This document shows, one piece after another, positions 12,535 to 60,136 of a stretch of 64,000 nt of DNA. Source of the stretch: Patescibacteria group bacterium. Its GTDB lineage: Bacteria; Patescibacteriota; Patescibacteriia; UBA9570. The stretch's first letter is position 1. Every line of letters begins with the position of its first letter. The notes under the pieces were generated by a model. It saw only the letters and a list, made by a program, of their open reading frames with translations, was not told where the DNA came from and ran no database searches. Position numbers and translations under genes: made by a program. The stretch lies in assembly GCA_024277435.1 (NCBI GenBank), contig JAJRVJ010000028.1:97300-161299 (forward strand). Reading direction: 5' to 3'.

Positions 12535-13104
12535 ATGAACGAGCACGATAAATTAGTAGGAGGAGAGGCTATCGAGCAGGGCATCAAGCCAATGGAGCTA
12601 ACGAGAGATGAGAGAGCAGTGTTAGTGGAGATGGATTTTAATGTGAATAATACTGTTACGGTACATGAAACCAGTATTGAATTTTGGACACTTCAAGAGG
12701 ATGATAATTTTAAGCCAAACTTAGAAGTACCTCTTACACAGATTCGGCTTGCAAATGAAAGGATTAGTCTAGCTATCGAGCGTATTGCAGCGGCTCTGCC
12801 AAAGCTTCAGGTCCACACTAATCCAGTTATTAGAGCATTACATCAACCTGTAGCAAATACTCTATCTATATTGCGGCGCGTTCATACTATTGGTATGGAG
12901 CTTGAAGTAAATATGGCCGCAAACCTTGAGTTTGAATATAGTGAAACATCTCCATTGGTAAGTAAATTTAATGGGTTTGCAGAAGAGTTACAGGCGTTAA
13001 TGATATCTGTGGAATCTGATATGATGGCGGTACAAAATAACTCAGCCTATAAAGCATATAGAGATCGCGGTGAATCATTACGTGGTACAATAGAATGGAT
13101 ATGA
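12535..13104 (+). CDS. Hypothetical protein embedded in the aromatic operon. No recognisable family.
   Basis: 189-aa ORF between aroC and pheA, same strand, overlapping the pheA start by 10 nt. Host-like codon usage. Confidence 0.55.
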   Translation: MNEHDKLVGGEAIEQGIKPMELTRDERAVLVEMDFNVNNTVTVHETSIEFWTLQEDDNFKPNLEVPLTQIRLANERISLAIERIAAALPKLQVHTNPVIRALHQPVANTLSILRRVHTIGMELEVNMAANLEFEYSETSPLVSKFNGFAEELQALMISVESDMMAVQNNSAYKAYRDRGESLRGTIEWI

Positions 13105-13673
13105 ATAACTCGATTACAATAGCTGTAGCCGGAAATAATGGTAGCTTTTCACATGAAGCTGGTATGCTATATATCACTGGCCATAAATTAGAAGACGTTC
13201 GTTTTATCTTTGGTATTGATAGCCCTGGAGCATTCAAGGCGATGCGTGACGGCAAGGCGCAAAAAATTATTGTACCTATATACAACACAACCGGAGGATT
13301 GGTGCACATGACGTTGCAGGCTATGGGGTTGTATCAATTTTCTATTGAAGAGATGTTTGATATGAAAATTGATCAGTGTATTATGCTGCATGATGATGCG
13401 CAAGCTGATGAAATTGAACGAGTTGCTTCGCATCCACAAGCTCTACGTCAGTGCCATGATTATCTGCAGGAGCAATGGCCAAAGCGAGAGTTGCAAGAAT
13501 ATCAAGATACCGCTCAAGCCGCTAAAGATTTATCAGACGGCAAACTTTCCAAGCGCACAGCAGTGATAGCGCCAAAGCTTTCAGCGGAATTATACGATCT
13601 TACAATTGCGGGGGAGGCTATTCAGGACGATCCAAACAATGCAACAACATTTTTAGTAATCGCACCACATTAA
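13095..13673 (+). CDS. pheA: prephenate dehydratase, catalytic domain only (no ACT domain)
   Basis: 192 aa. Motifs AVAGNNGSFSHEA, HPQALRQC, IAPKLSAELYDL, IQDDPNNATTFLVI. Confidence 0.8.
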   Translation: MDMNNSITIAVAGNNGSFSHEAGMLYITGHKLEDVRFIFGIDSPGAFKAMRDGKAQKIIVPIYNTTGGLVHMTLQAMGLYQFSIEEMFDMKIDQCIMLHDDAQADEIERVASHPQALRQCHDYLQEQWPKRELQEYQDTAQAAKDLSDGKLSKRTAVIAPKLSAELYDLTIAGEAIQDDPNNATTFLVIAPH

Positions 13674-13680
13674 GAATAAT

Positions 13681-14379
13681 ATGAACATTGGAATTATTGG
13701 AGTAGGGCGGTTTGGCTCTCTATTAGAAAAACATCTTTCAACAGATAATACAGTAGTTACATTCGATAAAGGTGATCCAGGTGAAGAGTTAATATTATGT
13801 GATCTTGTTATTTTTGCAGTGCCGAATAAAATATTGCAGGATATTGTATATGAGTATCAGCCATTTATCTCTAGTGATGCCACGGTAATGGACGTGGGAT
13901 CAGTAAAAGTGTTGCCGTGTGAGATCTTGCAAGAAGAATTTTCTGATAGAGCATTAGGAACGCATCCGTTATTTGGGCCAGATAGTGCAGGTGAATCTTG
14001 GGACGGGCATAAAATGGTGTTTTGTAAACTAGATATCTCGGATGAACGATATACGGCTGTAAAGAAAGTATTTACTGCTAGAGGAATTACAGCAATTGAA
14101 AGTACGCCAGAGGAGCACGATAAAATGATGGCTAAAACTCAAGCTCTCGTACATTTTATGGGACGGGCGTTATCTGGTATTGAAGAGCAGGAAATTTCTA
14201 CGCCGGATTATGGGAATTTATTGAAGATGATGGAGAAGGTAACAAATGATACCTGGGAGTTATTTTTTGACATACAGAATTTAAATCCGTATGCTGAAGC
14301 TGAACGAAAACAACTGATTACAAAATTACAATCATTAGAAGAACAAATACACGATGACCAACAACAACGCACAACGTAA
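13681..14379 (+). CDS. tyrA: prephenate dehydrogenase
   Basis: 232 aa with N-terminal NAD fold IGIIGVGRFGS. TyrA-like core. Confidence 0.8.
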   Translation: MNIGIIGVGRFGSLLEKHLSTDNTVVTFDKGDPGEELILCDLVIFAVPNKILQDIVYEYQPFISSDATVMDVGSVKVLPCEILQEEFSDRALGTHPLFGPDSAGESWDGHKMVFCKLDISDERYTAVKKVFTARGITAIESTPEEHDKMMAKTQALVHFMGRALSGIEEQEISTPDYGNLLKMMEKVTNDTWELFFDIQNLNPYAEAERKQLITKLQSLEEQIHDDQQQRTT

Positions 14380-15556: not shown

Positions 15557-15721
15557 CATTTAGGCTAATTCTCTGATCTCCCTCTCCTGAAAGGATGGGG
15601 GTCGGAGGAGGGGTCGATCAATGAATCGGTGGTGCTTATATGAGGCGCCAATAGGGTGCCTCAATAGGCATAAATCCACCAATTGTTCTTTACAGATGAT
15701 GAGTATGCAATACGATTCGAG

Positions 15722-15762
15722 GAAGCGCTGTATGGACTACACCGATGTCCATACAGCGCTTC
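15722..15762. promoter_or_regulatory. perfect 16-bp inverted repeat (GAAGCGCTGTATGGAC-N9-GTCCATACAGCGCTTC) upstream of the island A ORF; candidate operator or 5' leader structure
   Basis: The arms are exact reverse complements. Sits 53 nt upstream of ATG 15815 and is followed by direct repeats gcgcatc(t)gcgcatc. Confidence 0.5.
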
Positions 15763-15814
15763 CCGCGCATCTGCGCATCTTCATCTAACCCCGAAGACCC
15801 CTCAAGGAGGTCCT

Positions 15815-16213
15815 ATGTCGAGCAGCCTGCTCTCCAATCGTCCCGATTTCGCCATGCGCACTCGCGGTGGCCAGCGCCTGGCGTTCCACACCAGCGGTGG
15901 CGTCACCATGGCCTTCAGCCCCGCCACCAGTCAGCCCGTGCGCGCCCGCCTTGTCAGCGAGAAGGGTAACTCAAACGGTTGGCACCTAGTTGGTACTGCC
16001 GAGTTCGATGCGATGGCCACGCTCTACGGGCTGGTCAATGCCTTCGGCTCCTGGTGCCTGCGTGTCGTCCGCTTCGGCGTGGAGATGCTGGTGGACCTCA
16101 CTGCTCGTCACCTGGTGTGTGGTCGCTACGAAGGCGATGACGACTGGGTCAAGCTCGAGGCCGAGGGCTTCTGTGAGCTGGTGCGCGCGTACAACAACAT
16201 GTGCGCCGTCTGA
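15815..16213 (+). CDS. hypothetical protein (133 aa) in GC-rich island A
   Basis: ATG preceded by the strong SD AAGGAGG (7 nt upstream). About 65% GC with GC3-rich codons, unlike the host. A 12-bp GC hairpin follows the stop. Confidence 0.55.
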   Translation: MSSSLLSNRPDFAMRTRGGQRLAFHTSGGVTMAFSPATSQPVRARLVSEKGNSNGWHLVGTAEFDAMATLYGLVNAFGSWCLRVVRFGVEMLVDLTARHLVCGRYEGDDDWVKLEAEGFCELVRAYNNMCAV

Positions 16214-16230
16214 TGAGATGTTTTCGGGGA

Positions 16231-16266
16231 GAAGCGGTGGTGTGGTTCTAAGCCCACCACCGCTTC
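16231..16266 (+). terminator. GC-rich hairpin terminator (gaagcggtggtg...caccaccgcttc) after the island A ORF
   Basis: 12-bp perfect stem with no U-tract (high-GC-organism style). Confidence 0.5.
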
Positions 16267-16287
16267 GCAACCGCTACTGAAATGCTA

Positions 16288-16316
16288 TTGCAACACTTCA
16301 AAAATTTTCTTATAAT
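16288..16316 (+). promoter_or_regulatory. sigma70 promoter TTGCAA-17-TATAAT
   Basis: Near-consensus hexamers with 17-nt spacing, 40 nt upstream of ATG 16356. Confidence 0.55.
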
Positions 16317-16355
16317 CACTTTAACAAGCTAACCACTTGGCGTACTAATAGCGAT

Positions 16356-18950
16356 ATGGATCACACATTTCTACAATTACAAAAACGTTTAGCAAAACAA
16401 CTCTGGATCGTTAAAGAACAAACCAATAAAGAGCGCACTCTCGTGTATATCGCAGGAATGTCGCTTGATCAAGAAGAGCTAGCCAAAGTGGCTGGTATTG
16501 CGTTTTATGAAGAGCGATTACTATATGTAATTGGTCTACTTCGTAATCCTGAAACAACGGTAGTCTTCGTTACCTCCACACAAATTGACCCAGTAATTTT
16601 AGAGTATTATTTCCAACTATTTGGACGTAATAAACAAGAACAGGCCAGCATGCGTAAGCGCTGGCATCATTTTTATATTGGAAATAGTCGCACTCATAAA
16701 ACTCTTACGCGAAAGGTATTGTCTTCCAAGCGGGTAACCAACCAGGTGTTATCAAAAATTGTGAGCAAAGAACATGCAGTGTTACGGTGTTTTAATGTGT
16801 CTGAAGATGAACAGGCTTTAGCTGTTAAATTAGGAATTCCATTATTTGCTCCTAATCCCGACCTATTACATTGGGGTTCAAAATCTGGTTCCCGTAAAAT
16901 ATTTAAACAGGCTAAGCTAAAACCAGCGTATGGAATTGAAGATATTCATTCGATGGAAGAGCTTATTGCAGCCATTCGAAAAATTAAGAAGCAGCGTAAT
17001 CCAGAGCAAGTTGTTATTAAATTTAATTACAGTTTTTCTGGCGTTGGTAACGCAAATTTACTACTAAAGAAGTTTCCAAAATCAAATAAAGCCGCTGAAC
17101 AATATCTTAAAAAGAATATTGTGCCGTGTGAGCCGGGCATGACAAAAGTACAGTATCTAAAAAAATGTTTCGAAATGGGCGGCATTGTTGAAGAATGGCT
17201 AGTTGGAGATAAAGTATATTCACCAAGCGTACAAGTACTCATTGAACCAAATCAAGAAGTACGTATTTTATCTACACATGAACAATTATTAGATCCCGAA
17301 ACAAAGCAGGTGTATTTAGGTGCTCGTTTTCCAGCTCGTAAAAAATTACGACCATACATTGTAGATCAGGCTAAGGCGGTTGGTAATGCCTTAGCAAAAG
17401 AAGGTGTTATCGGACCACTTGGTATAGATTTTTTGGTAGTGAAAAAACGCGGAAAAACATATACGCATCCGGTTGAAATTAATTTACGCAAAGGTGGTAC
17501 CACGCATCCATTTCAAATTGCCCAAATGCTTACCGAGGGAACTACTCGTCCGATTGGAGCAATGCTTGGTAAAAATAAGAAGAAAGTATATTACTACTCA
17601 TTCGATAATATTAAGTCTTCGCAGTATACGGGGCTTACACCGAAACAGTTAATAGCTATCGTGCGAGAATCGGGACTGGAATTTGATTCCGAAGGAAATA
17701 TGGGGGTAGCATTACATTTAATGGGTGCGCTCCGTAAATATGGCAAATTCGGTGCAGTATGTATTGCCCGCTCACCAAAGGCAGCTGAACAACTATTTGT
17801 GTTATTGAAAAAAGTAGTTGATGCAAAAGTGGAGGAATTGGATATTGCCATAGAGGCTGAAGAGCTTGAAAATACCGTGAATCGTAAACGTTTAGTGGAT
17901 ACATTTGTTACGTTAGCAAGAATTCCCAGCCCTTCAGGTGAAGAAGATCAATTGCGCATTTGGTTACGTGAGGAGTTGGTGCGTTTAGGGTGTACAGTGC
18001 GGGTAGATAAGGCTGGAAATATTATTGCTAAAAAAGCTGGCGTGGGTAAAGTGCCAATATTACTTTCATCACATATGGATACAGTGCAGCCATGCCATAA
18101 TGTAAAACCAGTTGTGCGTGGAGATGTGATTATGACCGACGGCACAACTATTTTAGGCGCCGATAATAAAGCCGGAATAGTATATATTATTGAAGCCTTG
18201 CGTATACTGAGAGAAAATAAATTTTCACACATACCATTAGAAATTGTACTATCCACGTACGAAGAGCAATTTTCTCAGGGAGTGAAAGCTTTAGACATGT
18301 CAAAAATTAAATCGCCATTTGGATTAGTAATTGATGGTGCAGATGTAGGTGAGGTAGATTATACAGCACCATATATTGCAGTAATTGATGTAACTATAAC
18401 TGGCAAGGCGGCTCATTCGGGTGTAGAGCCAGAGAATGGTATTAGTGCAATTCAAATTGCTGCGCAGGCCATTAATCGTATGAAGCTTGGAAGAATCTAT
18501 CCAGATACTACCGCGAACATTGGATTGATTACGGGCGGAACTAATCGTAATGCTATCCCTGGAGAAGTAAGGCTTATTGGTGAAGTGCGTAGTCTTTCAA
18601 AACGGAAGCTTGAAGAGCAACTTGAACGCATGCACAAAGCATTGGAGGATGCCGCAGAAAAATATGGTGGTTTGTTGGCAATAGATAGTAGAGTTGCAGT
18701 GAGTGGTTATACATTTTCAAAAACCGATAAAGATATTAAACACATTATGGCTGTAATGAAGCGGGTTGGTATTCAGCCACAATTACGACAAGCTGGCGGA
18801 GGGTCTGATGCGAATGTATTTGTAATGCGCGGTGTAAAAACTATCGATGTAGGTACGGGAGTACGTAAGCCCCATACTGTTGAAGAGCATATCAATATCA
18901 ACGATATGGTGCAGATGGCTGAATTCGTTTTAGAGATGATCAAGGTATAA
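16356..18950 (+). CDS. Fusion protein (864 aa): an N-terminal ATP-grasp-like ligase domain (about 500 aa, tentative) joined to a C-terminal M20-family metallopeptidase (PepT/ArgE/DapE-like).
   Basis: C-terminal M20 motifs: SSHMDTV, GADNKAG, TYEEQ, ITGKAAHSG, GGGSDANV. N-terminal half has an ATP-grasp-like Gly-rich segment, KFNYSFSGVGNANLL, but no confident family assignment. Confidence 0.6.
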   Translation: MDHTFLQLQKRLAKQLWIVKEQTNKERTLVYIAGMSLDQEELAKVAGIAFYEERLLYVIGLLRNPETTVVFVTSTQIDPVILEYYFQLFGRNKQEQASMRKRWHHFYIGNSRTHKTLTRKVLSSKRVTNQVLSKIVSKEHAVLRCFNVSEDEQALAVKLGIPLFAPNPDLLHWGSKSGSRKIFKQAKLKPAYGIEDIHSMEELIAAIRKIKKQRNPEQVVIKFNYSFSGVGNANLLLKKFPKSNKAAEQYLKKNIVPCEPGMTKVQYLKKCFEMGGIVEEWLVGDKVYSPSVQVLIEPNQEVRILSTHEQLLDPETKQVYLGARFPARKKLRPYIVDQAKAVGNALAKEGVIGPLGIDFLVVKKRGKTYTHPVEINLRKGGTTHPFQIAQMLTEGTTRPIGAMLGKNKKKVYYYSFDNIKSSQYTGLTPKQLIAIVRESGLEFDSEGNMGVALHLMGALRKYGKFGAVCIARSPKAAEQLFVLLKKVVDAKVEELDIAIEAEELENTVNRKRLVDTFVTLARIPSPSGEEDQLRIWLREELVRLGCTVRVDKAGNIIAKKAGVGKVPILLSSHMDTVQPCHNVKPVVRGDVIMTDGTTILGADNKAGIVYIIEALRILRENKFSHIPLEIVLSTYEEQFSQGVKALDMSKIKSPFGLVIDGADVGEVDYTAPYIAVIDVTITGKAAHSGVEPENGISAIQIAAQAINRMKLGRIYPDTTANIGLITGGTNRNAIPGEVRLIGEVRSLSKRKLEEQLERMHKALEDAAEKYGGLLAIDSRVAVSGYTFSKTDKDIKHIMAVMKRVGIQPQLRQAGGGSDANVFVMRGVKTIDVGTGVRKPHTVEEHININDMVQMAEFVLEMIKV

Positions 18951-19303: not shown

Positions 19304-20587
19304 ATGAATTTCAAAGAATTACGTACAAAAGAGTTCGCTCGATTAGTGGATCAGCAGCATGTGTATGTAGATTATACTGGTGGTGGGCAATGTCCGGCTT
19401 CTGTGATGCAGCAATATAGTGATTTATTACAGACTACGGCTTTTGGTAATCCACACTCTTATAATCCAACATCATTGCATACTACGGAACTCATTGAAGA
19501 AGTGCGTGGAATGATATTAGATTTTTATAATGCCAAAGATGATTACACACTTATTTTTACACAGAATGCTTCAGGTGCTTTAAAAATTCTTGGAGAATCA
19601 TATCCATGGGGAGAAAATAGCCTATATATTATAGCGCGTGATAATCACAATTCCGTATTAGGCATTCGTGAATATGCAAAAAAAGCCGGAGCAACGGTGC
19701 AGTATTGGGAACTTGATGATGAATTGCGTTTACAAAATAATCTTGGAGAGTTAATTGGTCAGCATCCTGGCAAAGATGTTGTTGTGGCATATCCTGCGCA
19801 ATCAAACTTTAGCGGCGTAATGCATTCATTAGAATATGTTGAACGAGCGCATCAGCTTGGCGCTACAGTATTTTTAGATACTGCCGCATTTGTTCCAACG
19901 CATACGTTGGACTTACAAGCTATTCAGCCAGATGCAGCCTGTGTATCTTTTTACAAAGTTCTTGGATTTCCAACTGGTATTGGCGCGCTACTTATTCGCA
20001 ACGATCTATTGGAGAAACTTGAGAAAGCATGGTTTGCTGGCGGCACTGTGCGTGGAGTAAGTTTGGAAGATCATGTATTAGAACGCGGCCATGAAAGTTT
20101 TGAAGATGGTACGGTAAATTATGCTCTTATTCCAGGGTTAAAATATGTATATGAATTTATTGAAGAGCTTGGTGGTGTTGAAAAAATTGAAGAGCATGTA
20201 ACAGCGCTTACCGCAAAAGCATTAGAAGAATTACAGCAGATAGAAAACGTGGTTGTGTATGGTCCTAAAACAATGGATAACCATGGTGCAACTGTTGCAT
20301 TTAATATTCTAGATAAAGCCGGAGCTCCTATTCATTATGGCGAGATTGAGAAGTTAGCGTATGATAAAAAGATTTCATTACGTGGAGGATGTTTCTGTAA
20401 TCCTGGAGCAGGTTCAAAATCGTTTGGTCTCGATTCAGCGTCGATGCAAGGATTATTAGGAAAATTAAAAACGCATTCTAAAGAAGATGCGGCCGTACCT
20501 GGGGCTATTCGTGTTTCATTTGGAATTGCTAATTCAGAAGAAGATGTAAACGCAGTAATAGATTTTGTAAAATCAGTTGTGCAGTAA
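19304..20587 (+). CDS. PLP-dependent aminotransferase class V fold enzyme, NifS/MOCOS-N-terminal-like (cysteine desulfurase / Moco sulfurase-like)
   Basis: 427 aa. PLP-Lys context SFYKVLGFPTGIGAL. LRGGCFCNPGAG motif typical of the MOCOS NifS-like domain. Confidence 0.65.
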   Translation: MNFKELRTKEFARLVDQQHVYVDYTGGGQCPASVMQQYSDLLQTTAFGNPHSYNPTSLHTTELIEEVRGMILDFYNAKDDYTLIFTQNASGALKILGESYPWGENSLYIIARDNHNSVLGIREYAKKAGATVQYWELDDELRLQNNLGELIGQHPGKDVVVAYPAQSNFSGVMHSLEYVERAHQLGATVFLDTAAFVPTHTLDLQAIQPDAACVSFYKVLGFPTGIGALLIRNDLLEKLEKAWFAGGTVRGVSLEDHVLERGHESFEDGTVNYALIPGLKYVYEFIEELGGVEKIEEHVTALTAKALEELQQIENVVVYGPKTMDNHGATVAFNILDKAGAPIHYGEIEKLAYDKKISLRGGCFCNPGAGSKSFGLDSASMQGLLGKLKTHSKEDAAVPGAIRVSFGIANSEEDVNAVIDFVKSVVQ

Positions 20588-20651: not shown

Positions 20652-20698
20652 CACCTCTATACATACCATAAATGTGTAGGCTGTTATGTATAGAGGTG
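20652..20698. repeat. inverted repeat cacctctatacat-N21-atgtatagaggtg at the left low-GC/high-GC junction of island B
   Basis: 13-bp perfect arms located exactly where GC content jumps. Confidence 0.45.
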
Positions 20699-20754
20699 TA
20701 ACGGACGCGAGTTGTAGCAAGCGTCCGTCCACCGAACTCCCCCTGGGAGCATGT

Positions 20755-21168
20755 TCAGATGATCTTGTGCTGTCTCCTGACGGAGGCAGCGACGACGTGG
20801 TCCAGTGCTTCCGCGCAGTTGCGCCAGGCGGTGCCGCTCACCACCACGATCTGGCCCTTGTTGGCGGAAGCAACGATCACGTCGGCGTCGCGCATCATTC
20901 CATCGACGTATAGGCTGTGGAATCCTACGGGCAGGAGGCCGGAGTCGATCAGGACCCGGATCCTCTCCTGACTACCGGACTTGCGCGGCAGGTTGGTCTG
21001 GACGGTGACACCCGGACCCAGGAAGTAGAGCTTCCCGTCGCTGGAGGTGTCAGCAGTGATGATCTTCTGACCGCGGCGGACGGTCAGCACCGATGCCCCT
21101 TCGGACACCAGGTGCTTCGCCGCAGCCTCGGAGAAGCCCAGTTGTTGCAGGATCTGTTCTGCTGTCAT
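20755..21168 (-). CDS. stand-alone cyclic-nucleotide-binding (CAP/CRP-type cNMP-binding) domain protein, 137 aa, with no effector or HTH domain
   Basis: Pattern VRRGQKIITADTSSDGKLYFLGPGVTVQT ... GLLPVGFHSLYVDGMMRDADVIVAS resembles the beta-roll plus phosphate-binding cassette (G-E-L...R-A). GC-rich. SD GAGGGAG upstream on the minus strand. Confidence 0.45.
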   Translation of the reverse strand: MTAEQILQQLGFSEAAAKHLVSEGASVLTVRRGQKIITADTSSDGKLYFLGPGVTVQTNLPRKSGSQERIRVLIDSGLLPVGFHSLYVDGMMRDADVIVASANKGQIVVVSGTAWRNCAEALDHVVAASVRRQHKII

Positions 21169-21382
21169 AGTTCTCCCTCGGATTGTTCCATGACAATCCT
21201 ATTCGGTGTGTACATATTTAATAGCATTATGAGTATTTTGTACATATCTATTGAAGTACTACTGAATATATTTTACTTGACAAAATACCCCAATAATTGG
21301 AAAATGATGTGCTCGCAGGACTAGTTTCCTGCTTGCGTTCCTTGAAAAATGGCACATGCCACTAACGTCATGAGGTCTCCAC
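21169..21382. promoter_or_regulatory. AT-rich divergent promoter region inside GC-rich island B, containing TTGACA-like hexamers and the palindrome TGGCACATGCCA (21350-21361)
   Basis: A local GC drop to below 35% between two divergently oriented GC-rich genes. The 12-bp palindrome sits 22 nt upstream of the cyclase ATG. Confidence 0.45.
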
Positions 21383-23332
21383 ATGTCTGATACCAATCTG
21401 CGTGGGGCCCTCCGTGATGTGGGCTCTGCAAACGCCGTTGCTACGGTTGTGGCGGTTGAGGCGGAAGAACTGCAGCGGAAGTTGCCTAAAGGCACGCTGG
21501 TCGAGCGTCTCTGGCACCAGGTTTTCATGCCGGAAGGCTGGAAGACCAAGGATCTACTGAAGCGCACCATGCCCCTGCTCACCTGGGTCGCCGTGGAGCG
21601 GAACCTGTTCCGCATTTTCGGTAATCCCCAGGCTGCTGCGAAGGCGGTGGCTGCCAAGGCCGCTACGGCGGACTTCGGTGGCTTGGAGTTGGCGGACTGG
21701 TTCCGTTGGCTTCTGCGGCTGTTCGTGCCGCCCAGTTTCGTGTTCGCCTCAATCATCCCGCGGCTGATGCCCAAGTTCAACACCCTGAAGCGAGTCACTC
21801 TCGTGGAAGAAGATGACAACCACGTCATCTATCGGGTGCAGTACATGAACAAGAGCGGTAAGCAGACGCACGATCCTCACGAGGATATGGGTTCCCGTGT
21901 CTGGTTCGAGACGGCCATGACGGCTGGCGCGGCCAAGTACTGGTTCCCAGACGCTGCGCGGGTAGTACACCACGTGTTGGAGTTGGACCTCGTCCAGTAC
22001 CTCCAGCACTTCACTGAGTTCATGCCTGGCACCACCTTCTACCGGTCCGGTGGTACGCTGCGTATGCGCGCTACCGATGCGCGGCCCGACGTCATGGATA
22101 CGGTAGTGGCCACTCAAGTTCAGCTTCGGCCGGATGATGACGGCTTCTACACCGTCGTTGCCACTCAGGAAGACCTGAACATGGGCTTCGACACTCGCCT
22201 TGGCTGGCGGGTGGAGCGTGATATTGCGGCAGTGGACGCCATGGGTGAAACCTGGCAGCCCGTCGCTAGTGGAACGATCTTCTGCGCTGGAGCCAAGTGC
22301 TCGCTCACCGAGTACAACTGGCGTCCGCAGACAATCGCTCTGCGCGCGGTGTTCCGGTTCGCGGTGTTCTGCATCAAGCTGCTCGGTGGAAGCTTCACTG
22401 GCGCCGCTAGGTTGGCCGAAGCCAAGACGAACATGGCTGAGCTGGCTGCCGAGCGTGATAACGCTCTGGGTGACGCCGAGCGTGAACGTGCGCTCCGCCA
22501 GGAGATGGACAAAGATCACTTCCCGACGGAACAGATCGCTACGGCGATGCGTGAGCAGGCGTTCAGCCCGCGTCAGCTCTTCGGAGCGTTGCTGTTCTTC
22601 GATCTCGGCGATAGCACGGCTGCTAACGAGCGTCTTCCGAACTACGCGGATTTGCTCCAGCAGTTCATGGATGCCATCGATGCCGTTATGGTGCGCTACC
22701 GTGAGGGAGCGCGTGAAGACGGTGTCGTAGGATTCACGGTCTCGGAGCCGGGCGATGCTCGCCTCATGATCTTCTCGCGGCGCTGGAATGAGCACCACCA
22801 GACTATGGACGAGGCCGTTGCCCGCGATTAGCTCGCGGTGGCCATTGCGGTGGCCACGGAGATCTTCGCGATCTTCAACCAGGTGTTCAATGTTCCTGGC
22901 GGCCCCAGCTGCGTGCGCATCGGCATTCACTACGGCGAGTTCAAGCTCGATCGCCGTGGTGCCAGCAAGAGCCGTGCTCAGTGTTACGGCGATACCACGA
23001 ACACCGTCGCTCGTTTGGAGGCGGCCGGTAAGTTGCCTGGCGTAGCGGCCGGTGACCTGCGCACCGTGGTGCTGATGGCGAGCGTGGCCGAACTGGTGGC
23101 AGACAGTCACGAGTTCGTGCCGGTCGGCACACAGACCTTCAAGGGTGTCTCCGGACACCATGAGGTCGTGCGGCTGCTGCTGCCTGGTCAGCAGGGCGTT
23201 CGTCGCCTCAAGGACTTCACCGAGGAGATCAAAACCTTGCCGGACGTCGCAATCCAGCAGTTGGGGCCAGCGGACGCCAACCGTGAACTCCTCGACGAAC
23301 TCCTCGATGAGTTCGTCAGCGAAGCAGAGTAG
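21383..23332 (+). pseudogene. Sensor class III nucleotidyl (adenylyl/guanylyl) cyclase: an N-terminal domain of about 390 aa of unknown type, a coiled-coil linker and a cyclase catalytic domain. It is interrupted by an in-frame TAG at 22829-22831.
   Basis: Cyclase motifs FFDLGDST, EPGDARLMIF, VRIGIHYGEF and YGDTTNTVARLE are split across ORFs 21383-22831 and 22838-23332, both in the same frame. About 62% GC. Confidence 0.6.
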
Positions 23333-23336
23333 CGCT

Positions 23337-23375
23337 CTACCCGGTCGTGCACCTAACAAGTGCGCGGCCGGGTAG
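23337..23375 (+). terminator. GC-rich hairpin terminator (ctacccggtcg...cggccgggtag) after the cyclase
   Basis: 11-bp stem with one G-U pair, enclosing an inner gcac/gtgc hairpin. Confidence 0.5.
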
Positions 23376-23388
23376 GGTAGGAGGATTT

Positions 23389-23441
23389 AGCCCCCTAGTG
23401 TGGGTGCATGTCATGGCATGCACTAAAACATTCAGGGGGCT
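23389..23441. repeat. nested palindrome agccccct...[GTGCATGTCATGGCATGCAC]...agggggct at the right junction of island B
   Basis: Outer 8-bp and inner 7-bp inverted repeats. The inner core is related to the 19231-19268 palindrome. Confidence 0.5.
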
Positions 23442-23574
23442 TTATCACATATTCAGGCACTTGATTTTTACTTAAAAAAATGTTATACTTCTAAAAACAA
23501 GTTCTTACACTAGTATAGTAATACATAAAAATACTATATTGCTGTAACAACTGGTAAAACAAAAATAAAAAAAC

Positions 23575-43028: not shown

Positions 43029-43214
43029 ATGGCAAAGAAATCTCAAATCGCTAAATCTAAACGTAAGCCAAAATTCTCAACCCGAAAAGTGAATCGTTGT
43101 TGGAGATGTGGTCGTAACCGTGGCTATATGAGAGACTTTAATCTTTGTCGTATTTGTTTCCGCGAATTAGCTGAGCAGGGCGCCATTCCAGGCGTTCGCC
43201 GTGCAAGTTGGTAA
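43029..43214 (+). CDS. rpsN: 30S ribosomal protein S14 type Z (zinc-binding, 61 aa)
   Basis: C-x2-C ... C-x2-C ([23 protein letters not shown]). Confidence 0.93.
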
Positions 43215-58282: not shown

Positions 58283-58392
58283 AAATTGACCAGATGCGTA
58301 ATACGCGATAAGCTTCTCGATACTTTATACGCCTCGGGGGAGTGCGTATATGTTTGACATTTTGGGTACAGCTTCATACAAGGAGCTGAAAA

Positions 58393-58716
58393 GTGCCTAC
58401 ACCGGAACGTCCGGCGGTGCTGATTCATTCAGCTACCGCAGAAATATACGAGTTCCTGCCAACTCGTGATCGGCAGCGGCGACAAGACTCTCTCGCTCAG
58501 TTACAACTACTCAAGCAGCTGCTGCAGCGCCTCACAAGCAACGACATTACTCTGTCGCGTGCAGGGGAGTTGATTGTGAGACCCAACTTGGCGAGGCGCC
58601 GGCTGAGGGAGAATCCTCATAATCTGACGCACTACTGGGCAGCACGCTATAGTCGCTGCACTAACTGGGCTATGCTGCAATATGTTTTGCGCCTGTGCGC
58701 ACTATGCCCGGCATAG
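58393..58716 (+). CDS. hypothetical protein (107 aa), first ORF of GC-rich island C
   Basis: SD AGGAGC followed by GTG. GC-rich codon usage. Preceded by TTGACA-like promoter 58345-58375. Overlaps the next ORF by 22 nt in another frame. Confidence 0.4.
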   Translation: MPTPERPAVLIHSATAEIYEFLPTRDRQRRQDSLAQLQLLKQLLQRLTSNDITLSRAGELIVRPNLARRRLRENPHNLTHYWAARYSRCTNWAMLQYVLRLCALCPA

Positions 58717-58901
58717 ATCATTTGGTTGGCGAGTTGAATCGGGCTGGTCATCCGTTGCGTGAGCAAGTGCGACGCGCTCGGTTTGCTACTGATGTGCGCA
58801 TGCTACTCGCTGCGACGCGTCGCCTTACGGAGGCGCACCACCCGGCTGGAGCTGGTAGGCTTGTGGCTTGGCTCACTGGAGCTAAAGTGGAGGTGCCGTA
58901 G
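58695..58901 (+). CDS. hypothetical protein (68 aa), overlapping partner of the preceding ORF (possible two-gene module or frameshifted single gene)
   Basis: GC-rich ORF. Followed by hairpin cttggag-tag-ctccaag (58902-58918). Confidence 0.35.
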   Translation: MRTMPGIDHLVGELNRAGHPLREQVRRARFATDVRMLLAATRRLTEAHHPAGAGRLVAWLTGAKVEVP

Positions 58902-58977
58902 CTTGGAGTAGCTCCAAGAATGTTCAAGCGCCTTCTGAGTTCATCCCAGAACTTAGAAGGCAATAGGACAATACTCA

Positions 58978-59076: not shown

Positions 59077-59194
59077 GTCACGGGTGCGGCAAATAGTGTG
59101 GTTTATACATGCGCATTACTTGCTACATCCGTGGCCACAAAAAAGAGTGGAGACGCTCTGATCTGTGTATCCCCCAAAAAAAGGTAGGTAAGTC

Positions 59195-59725
59195 ATGAGC
59201 ACCCCGCTCAGCATCATTCTCGGCAACTCTGTTGTCGGCCCCATCGTTCCCGTCCGCGTCGTCGAGACCGTGGATCCGCGGGTCTCGATTCACTTCAAGG
59301 ACGGCATCGTCCTCAACCTCGTCGGCCTCACCGCCGAGGAGCGCGATGGCTTCGACGAGACCGGGATCAACTGGCACGACGACATCGAGGACAGCGGAGC
59401 GCTGCTCCACCGCGACATGGGCGTCCTGTTCGACCGCAGCGGGATGACCAACCTGCGGCAGGGCGGTGAGCCCCACCCCGACCCCCGTGTTCGCCAGCAG
59501 GACTGGCAGAACACCGTGAGTTCGGTTACCGTCACCACGGGCGCCGGCCCCTACGGGCTGCTGGTGGCCCTCTGCGCCGCCGGCTGGGGACCCGCCATCA
59601 GCTCCCGGATCGACGTGGTCGGCCACATGCGGATGGCCGTGGGCAGCCGGGACTCCGCAGAGCTGGCCCGCTACGTGGGCGGGGCCTTCCGCTCCAGCGG
59701 ACGGAAGTACGTCCGGGTCGCCTAG
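59195..59725 (+). CDS. hypothetical protein (176 aa), GC-rich island C
   Basis: ATG with upstream AGGTAGG. About 65% GC. Followed by GC hairpin 59764-59802. Confidence 0.5.
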   Translation: MSTPLSIILGNSVVGPIVPVRVVETVDPRVSIHFKDGIVLNLVGLTAEERDGFDETGINWHDDIEDSGALLHRDMGVLFDRSGMTNLRQGGEPHPDPRVRQQDWQNTVSSVTVTTGAGPYGLLVALCAAGWGPAISSRIDVVGHMRMAVGSRDSAELARYVGGAFRSSGRKYVRVA

Positions 59726-59856
59726 AGCGCGCTGAAGAAGCGCAGGATCTACGGTTCAACTTCACGCCCCCTTCAATCGTGTATGCGAGGGAAGGGGGAA
59801 CGTGATCTTTCTAGATTAGATAAATAGTCTACAGAGAATACGTAAAATTTGCAGAG

Positions 59857-59884: not shown

Positions 59885-59892
59885 GTCGCGTT

Positions 59893-60075
59893 GTGCATTA
59901 CAACATAGTGAAGCGTCCCGCTGGCCTTCCGATAAAACTTCTCATGCAGCGGGTCTTCGGGCCGCTGGCGAAGGGAGATCCCCTCAAGCGAGACGTCGAG
60001 AAGAGGCGCCTAGGTAAGGTCACCCGCAACATGACCTCCGCCCTCAACACCAGTCGAGGTCTCCAGGAACTGTAA
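59893..60075 (+). CDS. small basic hypothetical protein (60 aa)
   Basis: GTG-start ORF, moderately GC-rich, between island C and asnS. Confidence 0.3.
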   Translation: MHYNIVKRPAGLPIKLLMQRVFGPLAKGDPLKRDVEKRRLGKVTRNMTSALNTSRGLQEL

Positions 60076-60136
60076 TTATTCCTAAATATTACACATGATA
60101 ATTGACGCATTAGGTAAGACTCCGTACAATACGCAT

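Follow-up and report, generated by a model that had tools for sequence, protein, structure and literature searches.

Sensory class III nucleotidyl cyclases, among them soluble guanylyl cyclase (sGC), Rv1264, CyaB and the photoactivated cyclases, place a signalling helix between an N-terminal input domain and the cyclase domain. Cyclic-nucleotide-binding (CNB) domains are known from the cAMP-CRP/Vfr circuits, from the Pycsar systems (a PycC cyclase with a PycTIR or PycTM effector) and their cGMP offshoot Pucsar, and from stand-alone proteins solved by structural genomics (3mdp, Gmet_1532; 5d1i, from Brucella; 3gyd, Mfla_1926), whose function is likewise not known. In PsPycTIR the phosphate-binding cassette has the form Gly-Glu...Arg-[Ser/Thr]-Ala (G86, E87, R97), a high degree of conservation among CNB domains is reported for the Glu in contact with the ribose 2'-OH, and an N-terminal extension drives oligomerisation of PycTIR (PMC11224242). 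Here we analyse a GC-rich block with two divergent genes, encoding a small CNB-fold protein and a class III cyclase, in a 64,000-nucleotide stretch of a Patescibacteria group bacterium (contig JAJRVJ010000028.1 of assembly GCA_024277435.1, positions 97,300 to 161,299), which is called the window below and to which all coordinates refer unless a locus handle precedes them.

We regard it as fairly probable, from comparative sequence analysis and structural models, that the two genes form an old, clade-restricted and chromosomally fixed cyclic-nucleotide signalling module that is disabled or split in this particular genome. The cyclase shares the domain order of the sensory class III enzymes, but its input region of ~340 aa matches no Pfam family or PDB chain, in keeping with the initial annotation of an N-terminal sensor of no known kind, and it carries [SCD]-E-P-G-D at the position of the usual base-specifying Lys/Glu. 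Unlike in Pycsar and Pucsar, the genes are divergent rather than co-directional and stay at one chromosomal position, the cyclase bears a large input region, no effector domain is fused to the CNB fold and the cassette Glu (E87 in PsPycTIR) is missing. In contrast to CRP and Vfr, the receptor has no helix-turn-helix domain and stops at residue 137, behind the CNB fold's C-terminal helices; it therefore cannot be a transcription factor on its own, and the cAMP/CRP-like circuit first proposed as an analogy fails for want of a DNA-binding domain. The nearest receptor analogues are the stand-alone CNB proteins, to which sequence similarity is undetectable and from which the protein described here differs in its modified cassette and obligate cyclase partnership.

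The cyclase and its small partner

The two genes are divergently transcribed, as initially annotated: the small gene (20755-21168, minus strand) has 137 codons, and the cyclase gene (21383-23332, plus strand) has 649 sense codons with an in-frame TAG among them. The open reading frame (ORF) of the cyclase as listed (21383-22831, 482 aa) ends at this TAG, and the frame runs on to 23332. The GC content of third codon positions (GC3) is 0.80 in the small gene and 0.745 in the cyclase gene, and since the GC3 peak falls in the annotated frames of both, these are the coding frames. In GC-rich DNA, several frames can be expected to hold long ORFs; an antisense ORF of 536 aa (21749-23359) was rejected as a gene, with conservation relative to locus L003 of 41% as compared to 67% for the sense frame, and with lower GC3. 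Nearly all genes of the window lie on the plus strand.

The C-terminal part of the cyclase (aa 395-600; 22565-23182, plus strand) was assigned to the class III cyclase homology domain. The motifs FFDLGDST, GDA, RIGIHYGEF and GDTTNTVARLE, on which this assignment was originally based, are all present. The PF00211 search that had been proposed as a check reported the window protein, with the amber codon read as Gln, at 24.5 bits (cut-off 21.9) with partial coverage of the domain, and two orthologues matched over the whole domain with similar scores (P0002: 25.1 bits; the L087 orthologue: 22.3 bits; profile positions 11-172 of 183), P0005 being the only one under the cut-off (13 bits). A search of the PDB with a profile of the catalytic part retrieved class III cyclases only (sGC beta, E = 2.9e-7; human soluble adenylyl cyclase, E = 1.2e-6), and the region has the fold expected of this class. 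The predicted metal-binding residues D407 (in FFDLGDST; 22601-22603) and D458 (in EPGDA; 22754-22756) align with the VDISGFT and GDA motifs of soluble adenylyl cyclase, while N540 (23000-23002) and R544 (23012-23014) align with the Asn and Arg of the NTASR motif of sGC beta; all four residues, encoded on the plus strand, are invariant in seven family members. With this full set of catalytic residues the domain looks catalytically competent. The base-specifying residue pair of class III cyclases is Lys/Asp for ATP and Glu/Cys for GTP, and the canonical motif with the Lys or Glu is K/E-x-x-G-D. All members have [SCD]-E-P-G-D ahead of and including the GD motif, with an invariant Glu one position off the canonical site, and because the purine-specifying positions are non-canonical, neither the substrate nor the product of the cyclase can be assigned; for the product, the missing cassette Glu of the receptor, which would normally read the ribose 2'-OH, adds to this.

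The catalytic domain is preceded by a long helix (aa 340-385; 22400-22537, plus strand), a candidate coiled coil or signalling helix that agrees with the linker annotated at this place and is seen in the structural model at residues 340-379. Upstream of it, the presumed sensor or input domain (aa 1-339; 21383-22399, plus strand) is strongly conserved within the family. By sequence, it is not an H-NOX, PAS, GAF, CHASE or HAMP domain; a search of a large protein set with an N-terminal profile returned the query's own protein only, from a flooded candidate list, and carries no weight. An extracytoplasmic sensor enclosed by two transmembrane helices was ruled out, as the peaks of hydropathy reach a borderline value (1.65) and do not occur in the L087 orthologue. 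The family shows no conserved transmembrane segment in this region, which we regard as a novel, probably cytosolic input region. The mean column identity over the full cyclase alignment is 74%.

The amber codon inside the catalytic domain (TAG, codon 483; 22829-22831, plus strand) is real, as originally reported. It aligns with Glu in 5/5 full-length orthologues, and in the two that were checked at the nucleotide level (loci L003 and L001) the codon is GAG. Intact orthologues have 637-649 aa, and the window gene is the only one with an interrupted frame. TAG ends 8 of 45 long host ORFs in the window, and no suppressor tRNA was found there. The amber codon removes the catalytic half with N540 and R544, but the downstream part remains in frame with all invariant residues kept, from which we conclude that the change is either recent or an artefact of sequencing or consensus calling. 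As judged from the orthologues, the GAG-to-TAG change is a lesion private to this genome and not a feature of the system: the module is probably inactive here, or else the TAG reflects an erroneous base call or a minority allele. Translation restarting at GTG 22838 would yield a split domain, which is unlikely to function.

The small protein had been annotated as consisting of a CNB domain only. This holds for the predicted fold, and the whole protein appears as a single domain, but PF00027 gives no match: sequence HMMs fail to detect a CNB domain in the window protein, and the distant member P0016 reaches 14.1 bits (cut-off 27.5). Pfam reported for the window protein only a sub-threshold match to RAMA (19.9 bits, cut-off 35.2), which was dismissed, and searches against PADLOC, PHROGs and PDB profiles returned nothing. 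The AlphaFold2 model, built from nine family members (pLDDT 72, pTM 0.69), has two N-terminal helices, an eight-stranded beta-roll with flanking helices, and C-terminal helices, so that the whole 137-aa length is predicted to form one CNB fold with no extra domain and no transmembrane segment. The assignment to the CNB fold is supported by this model, on which it rests. The hhalign comparison to E. coli CRP was non-significant (E = 0.063) and gave the expected register (G82 on G71, R93 on R82, A95 on A84). The equivalent of the phosphate-binding cassette (codons 80-97; 20878-20931, minus strand; P80, G82, H84, S85, G90, R93, D94, A95, D96, V97) is the best-conserved stretch of the protein, with 7/18 positions invariant compared to 17/119 elsewhere. 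G82, R93 and A95 are invariant, and the spacing of 11 from Gly to Arg is that of CRP and PycTIR. In place of the canonical Glu, every member has Phe, Trp or Tyr; the residue following the Arg is Asp in 9/10 members, with P0016 keeping Ser (Arg-Ser-Ala). This canonical motif and the weak PF00027 score of P0016, the register of the CRP alignment and the conservation of the cassette all agree with the CNB assignment. The mean column identity of the small protein is 65-69%.

Relatives of the pair and the rival explanations

Relatives of the cyclase in a set of 5.8 billion clustered proteins comprise the window's own 482-aa fragment and five full-length proteins (52-64% identical), and the same set contains nine small proteins. 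An exhaustive HMMER scan of 1.84 billion representatives added one more, distant small protein. In GTDB representative genomes, IMG/VR and JGI metagenome contigs (cyclase alignment) no relatives were found with the two peptide patterns used, which may miss divergent members; exact-sequence look-ups of the window proteins returned no record. The family is thus tiny and, as far as the databases sample it, clade-restricted. The initial annotation had suggested looking for the same pair in other genomes, and we found it as divergent neighbours in 10/10 loci that could be placed, in NCBI and in independent Logan assemblies from different runs and samples. The order is the same throughout. A gene for an M20 peptidase comes first, in some loci with a class V aminotransferase gene after it; then follow the small gene (minus strand), the cyclase gene (plus strand) and an acyltransferase-HAD gene. 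The arrangement is retained even at locus L087, whose cyclase shares no more than 31% identity across the full length. By this strict genomic coupling the two genes are shown to be functionally linked, and the comparison of the members shows both to be under purifying selection.

We propose that the N-terminal region of the cyclase would sense an intracellular cue and gate the cyclase dimer through the long helix, and that the small protein would be the receptor that binds the cyclase product. Since it has no output domain, the receptor may act through ligand-dependent protein-protein contacts, either as feedback on the cyclase or on other partners.

Several observations weigh against a signalling module of this kind. 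The small protein comes with no identified output partner, neither PF00027 nor the alignment to CRP gives a significant match, and the cassette region is the part of its model with the lowest confidence. The AlphaFold2 model of the cyclase is poor (pLDDT 55), with the N-terminal region below usable confidence. The ligand may be other than a 3',5'-cyclic nucleoside monophosphate (cNMP), given the absence of the Glu and the usual Asp in place of Ser/Thr; other CNB-fold proteins bind haem or 2-oxoglutarate.

A further objection comes from recombination. Among the four closer genomes, the flanks and the cyclase group L001 with L085 and L084 with L086, at 83-89% nucleotide identity. The small gene instead groups L001 with L086 and L084 with L085, at 76-83%, with ~55% across the groups and breakpoints at the gene ends. 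This discordance indicates that deeply divergent receptor alleles have been exchanged between backgrounds in a cassette-like manner. Receptor alleles only 47-54% identical in amino acid sequence pair with cyclases that are up to 87% identical, a pattern that speaks against two proteins co-evolving across a tight physical interface. The 5' part of the M20 gene is mosaic too (56-68% nucleotide identity between L001 and L085, against 78-85%), so the recombination is regional and not special to the receptor.

A system of abortive-infection defence akin to Pycsar or Pucsar, an analogy already drawn in the initial annotation, would have the cyclase sense a phage and produce a cNMP, and the CNB protein would be a minimal effector, for instance one that oligomerises on binding its ligand, or would recruit an unlinked effector. 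Such a role would agree with a weak PADLOC match of the cyclase to PycC (E = 3.5e-4), with the resemblance of the two N-terminal helices of the small protein to PycTIR's N-terminal extension, with the small size and clade restriction of the family, with the anomalous composition of the block, with the cassette-like swapping of receptor alleles and with the knock-out of the cyclase in one genome. The receptor, however, has no killing domain (no transmembrane, TIR or other toxic domain is fused to its single domain of 137 aa), PADLOC does not recognise it, and all ten loci occupy one fixed syntenic site, unlike sporadic defence islands; the mosaic structure of the neighbouring M20 host gene also deprives the allele swapping of its special character. 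We therefore consider a defence function unlikely.

The pair could also be degenerate or repurposed, with a CNB protein that no longer binds cNMP, like the CNB-homology domain of KCNH channels, or that binds another ligand, and with a link to the cyclase that is regulatory or structural. The loss of the conserved Glu from the cassette, the Asp after the Arg in most members and the missing PF00027 match would be expected of such a protein. Against it, the cassette is the most conserved part of the sequence and keeps an invariant Arg at the phosphate-binding position with exact canonical spacing, the most divergent member, P0016, retains R-S-A, and the partner cyclase keeps all its catalytic residues in all lineages. 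This explanation appears improbable to us, and we retain the signalling module as the preferred interpretation of the pair.

Hairpins, promoters and flanking genes

The block had initially been described as bounded by inverted repeats, and repeats are indeed present at 20652-20698 and 23389-23441, but they belong to terminator-like hairpins and do not mark the boundaries of an island. Two hairpins follow the small gene in tandem on the minus strand: a GC-rich one 3' of the stop codon (20699-20731), then a second, terminator-like one (20652-20698) with arms of 17 nt that are 94% complementary. On the plus strand, a GC-rich 19-bp hairpin lies directly 3' of the cyclase stop codon (23334-23378) and is followed by another (23384-23446), AGCCCCCT...AGGGGGCT, with a nested GTGCATG stem and then TTTAT. 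Compared to shuffled sequences, the folding of these regions gives z = -6.0 downstream of the small gene and z = -9.8 downstream of the cyclase. The hairpins are local and those at the two ends are not copies of one another; as they are unrelated in sequence, they are not the terminal repeats of a mobile element and look like terminators after both genes. An Rfam scan of the block reported no RNA family.

The genes are separated by a divergent promoter spacer of 214 bp (21169-21382) with Shine-Dalgarno-like (SD) sequences for both. It is AT-rich, as had been noted, with a host-like GC content of 38% overall and 26% in its core. A sigma-70-like promoter of the cyclase (TTGACA, 17 nt, GAAAAT; 21277-21305, plus strand) matches the consensus at 10/12 positions, and its TTGACAAA box with the following GAAAATGATGT is common to the window and locus L003. 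In the spacers of the L001 group (L001 9855-9990; L084, L085 and L086; alignment A4) we observed inverted -35-like boxes, ATTGACAAAT and TTTGTCAAT, ~35 bp apart, which could represent two divergent promoters or an operator; only the TTGACAAA box is common with the window and L003. The palindrome TGGCACATGCCA, to which the initial annotation had drawn attention, is present in the 5' leader of the cyclase gene (21350-21361) but is not kept in the closest relative. By our own arithmetic ~0.7 perfect 12-mer palindromes are expected by chance in 3 kb, and with neither conservation nor an excess over chance the palindrome was ruled out as an operator and is probably incidental. The 5' leader of the cyclase gene folds no better than shuffled sequence (z = -0.75).

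The flanking genes vary among the loci. Next to the block, the class V aminotransferase gene shows a presence/absence polymorphism: the window (19304-20587), L084 (7984-9285) and L086 (1888-3189) have it, and L001, L003, L085 and L088 lack it and have the M20 gene followed immediately by the small gene. The M20 gene is a fusion of ATP-grasp and M20 peptidase parts of 863-890 aa in the window (16281-18950), L003 and L084, and encodes only 624-630 aa in L001 (7051-8925), L085 (1263-3152) and L088, with the ATP-grasp part largely missing or divergent. Locus L001 has two extra ORFs of 156 and 159 aa (12589-14065; 51% GC) between the cyclase and acyltransferase-HAD genes and, at its end, a transposase gene of the rve family (15886-16689); the window has none of these.

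As for the host, the ribosomal-protein operon of the window has the S5 gene directly followed by L15 (44568-45511), with no L30 gene, and S14 (43029-43214) is of the short, 61-aa zinc-ribbon type. The best matches of its AsnRS are found in metagenome-assembled genomes (MAGs) labelled Patescibacteria or "uncultured Gammaproteobacteria". The host may be Patescibacteria-like, though it encodes genes of the tryptophan and shikimate pathways.

Base composition and age of the block

The region 20700-23400 has a GC content of 59.5%, against 39.1% for the remainder of the window, which confirms the GC-rich block in a low-GC genome. The values for 1-kb windows across 21001-23000 are 0.555-0.612 (elsewhere ~0.39), and the 100-bp profile has sharp edges, rising from ~20700 and dropping at ~23400. 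Coding GC is 62.3% in the small gene and 61.1% in the cyclase gene, and their GC3 (given above) compares to 0.24-0.32 in five host genes of the window; GC1 and GC2, the corresponding values for first and second codon positions, are raised as well, and the amino-acid composition is typical of GC-rich genomes.

The same composition is found in the relatives. Coding GC is ~60-64% in all loci, with flanks of 37-45%, while the spacer between the genes has 38-45% in 9/9 loci measured. Protein identity between the window and its relatives is 63-69% for flanking host proteins and 52-67% for the cyclase. At four-fold degenerate sites, host genes of the window and of other lineages are 0.27-0.38 identical (chance 0.29-0.33) and the cyclase genes 0.36-0.42 (chance 0.33-0.34), nearly saturated, and the GC content of these sites is 0.64-0.78 in the cyclase and 0.29-0.48 in host genes. 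Judged by its recurrence in every relative, the GC content of 62% is a long-standing property of both coding sequences.

A foreign segment of recent acquisition, or a chimera with a GC-rich organism that arose in assembly or binning, the two origins initially envisaged, would account for the 20-point jump in GC with its sharp edges and for the amino-acid composition with raised GC1 and GC2, but it is highly improbable, given that ten loci, differing in sample and in assembler (NCBI, Logan), have the same junctions, that spacer and promoter are host-like, that the island genes have diverged to the same extent as their flanks, that the block holds only two genes, neither recombinase-like, with no integrase, transposase, terminal or direct repeats, and that no homologue was found in any GC-rich genome in the databases searched. 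The recurrence of arrangement and composition across independent assemblies excludes assembly chimerism; recent horizontal transfer is strongly disfavoured by the equal divergence of the flanks, the near saturation of host four-fold sites and the lack of a donor family in these databases.

The direction of substitution gave two values. Crude parsimony polarisation gave an apparent equilibrium GC of ~0.7 for the cyclase (0.55-0.74 in 6/7 triplets) and 0.30-0.46 for the flanking genes; a stricter polarisation with two outgroups and small counts gave 0.22, which suggests some GC decay in the L001/L085 branch. Mutations in bacteria generally favour the change from GC to AT, and polymorphism data have been used to argue for selection on GC content (PMC2936529). 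In the closer genomes, synonymous-site identity is 0.47-0.60 in the island and 0.28-0.36 in host genes, yet conservation of the cyclase protein does not exceed that of the flanking host proteins. The host-like spacer together with the conserved synonymous sites points to a force acting on the coding sequence itself; codons, amino-acid composition or mRNA could be the object of selection. Neither a recent import nor a regional tract of biased conversion fits as well.

More tentatively, the pair could be one cargo of an actively maintained GC-rich coding compartment in an AT-rich, possibly Patescibacteria-like small genome; we consider this possible, though doubtful. The compartment would consist of short islets whose genes are specific to the clade and carry AT-rich promoters of their own as well as strong hairpin terminators, and the GC3 of ~0.7-0.9, compared to ~0.3 in flanking genes, would have outlasted the overwriting of neutral sites in the flanks. 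As only coding sequence shows the GC excess, codons or mRNA would be under selection, and regional biased gene conversion or recent transfer would not be responsible; the targets of selection may be condition-specific translation or the resistance of transcripts to AU-directed RNases.

The window contains four further intergenic GC-rich islets with 55-67% GC (15650-16300, 58350-58950, 59190-59800 and 59890-60080), each with a small ORF, an AT-rich SD-containing leader upstream and a GC hairpin downstream; examples of the ORFs are 15815-16213 (132 aa) and 59195-59725 (176 aa, GC3 0.91). None of the four matched PHROGs, and the two scanned against Pfam (15674-16210 and 59192-59722) gave nothing above the cut-off. 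GC-rich ORFans also occur between the chorismate mutase and M20 genes in L001 (4931-6190), L084 (2941-4063), L085 (81-515) and L003 (505-768). The ORF at L001 5780-6190 is 67% identical to that of L085, 55% to that of L084 and 37% to that of L003; the ORF at the same site in the window (island A) is unrelated to them. These other islets, in the window and in the relatives, share the long-term, coding-specific persistence of high GC. In L009, which comes from a Patescibacteria-labelled MAG, a 3-kb stretch upstream of the AsnRS gene (199-2901) has 52-59% GC, compared to 36-46% downstream, and encodes, as read from the translations, proteins resembling aspartate carbamoyltransferase and metallo-beta-lactamase/RNase J; it may be a further case of heterogeneous composition, located where the window has islets C1-C3.

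The locus, if the assignments made here from sequence and predicted fold are correct, defines a new family of sensory class III cyclases, with an input region that has no known relative and a minimal CNB-fold partner. It would offer a compact system in which to study the role of a receptor that lacks an output domain and the nucleotide read by a cassette without the Glu. A sharp GC island in a MAG is by itself no evidence of contamination or recent transfer. With a GC content of ~62% and a GC3 of ~0.75 in genomes of 39% GC, in every lineage sampled, the locus is a natural counter-example to compositional amelioration, and a maintained GC-rich coding compartment, if true, would run counter to the usual view that genes of foreign appearance come to adopt the composition of their host.

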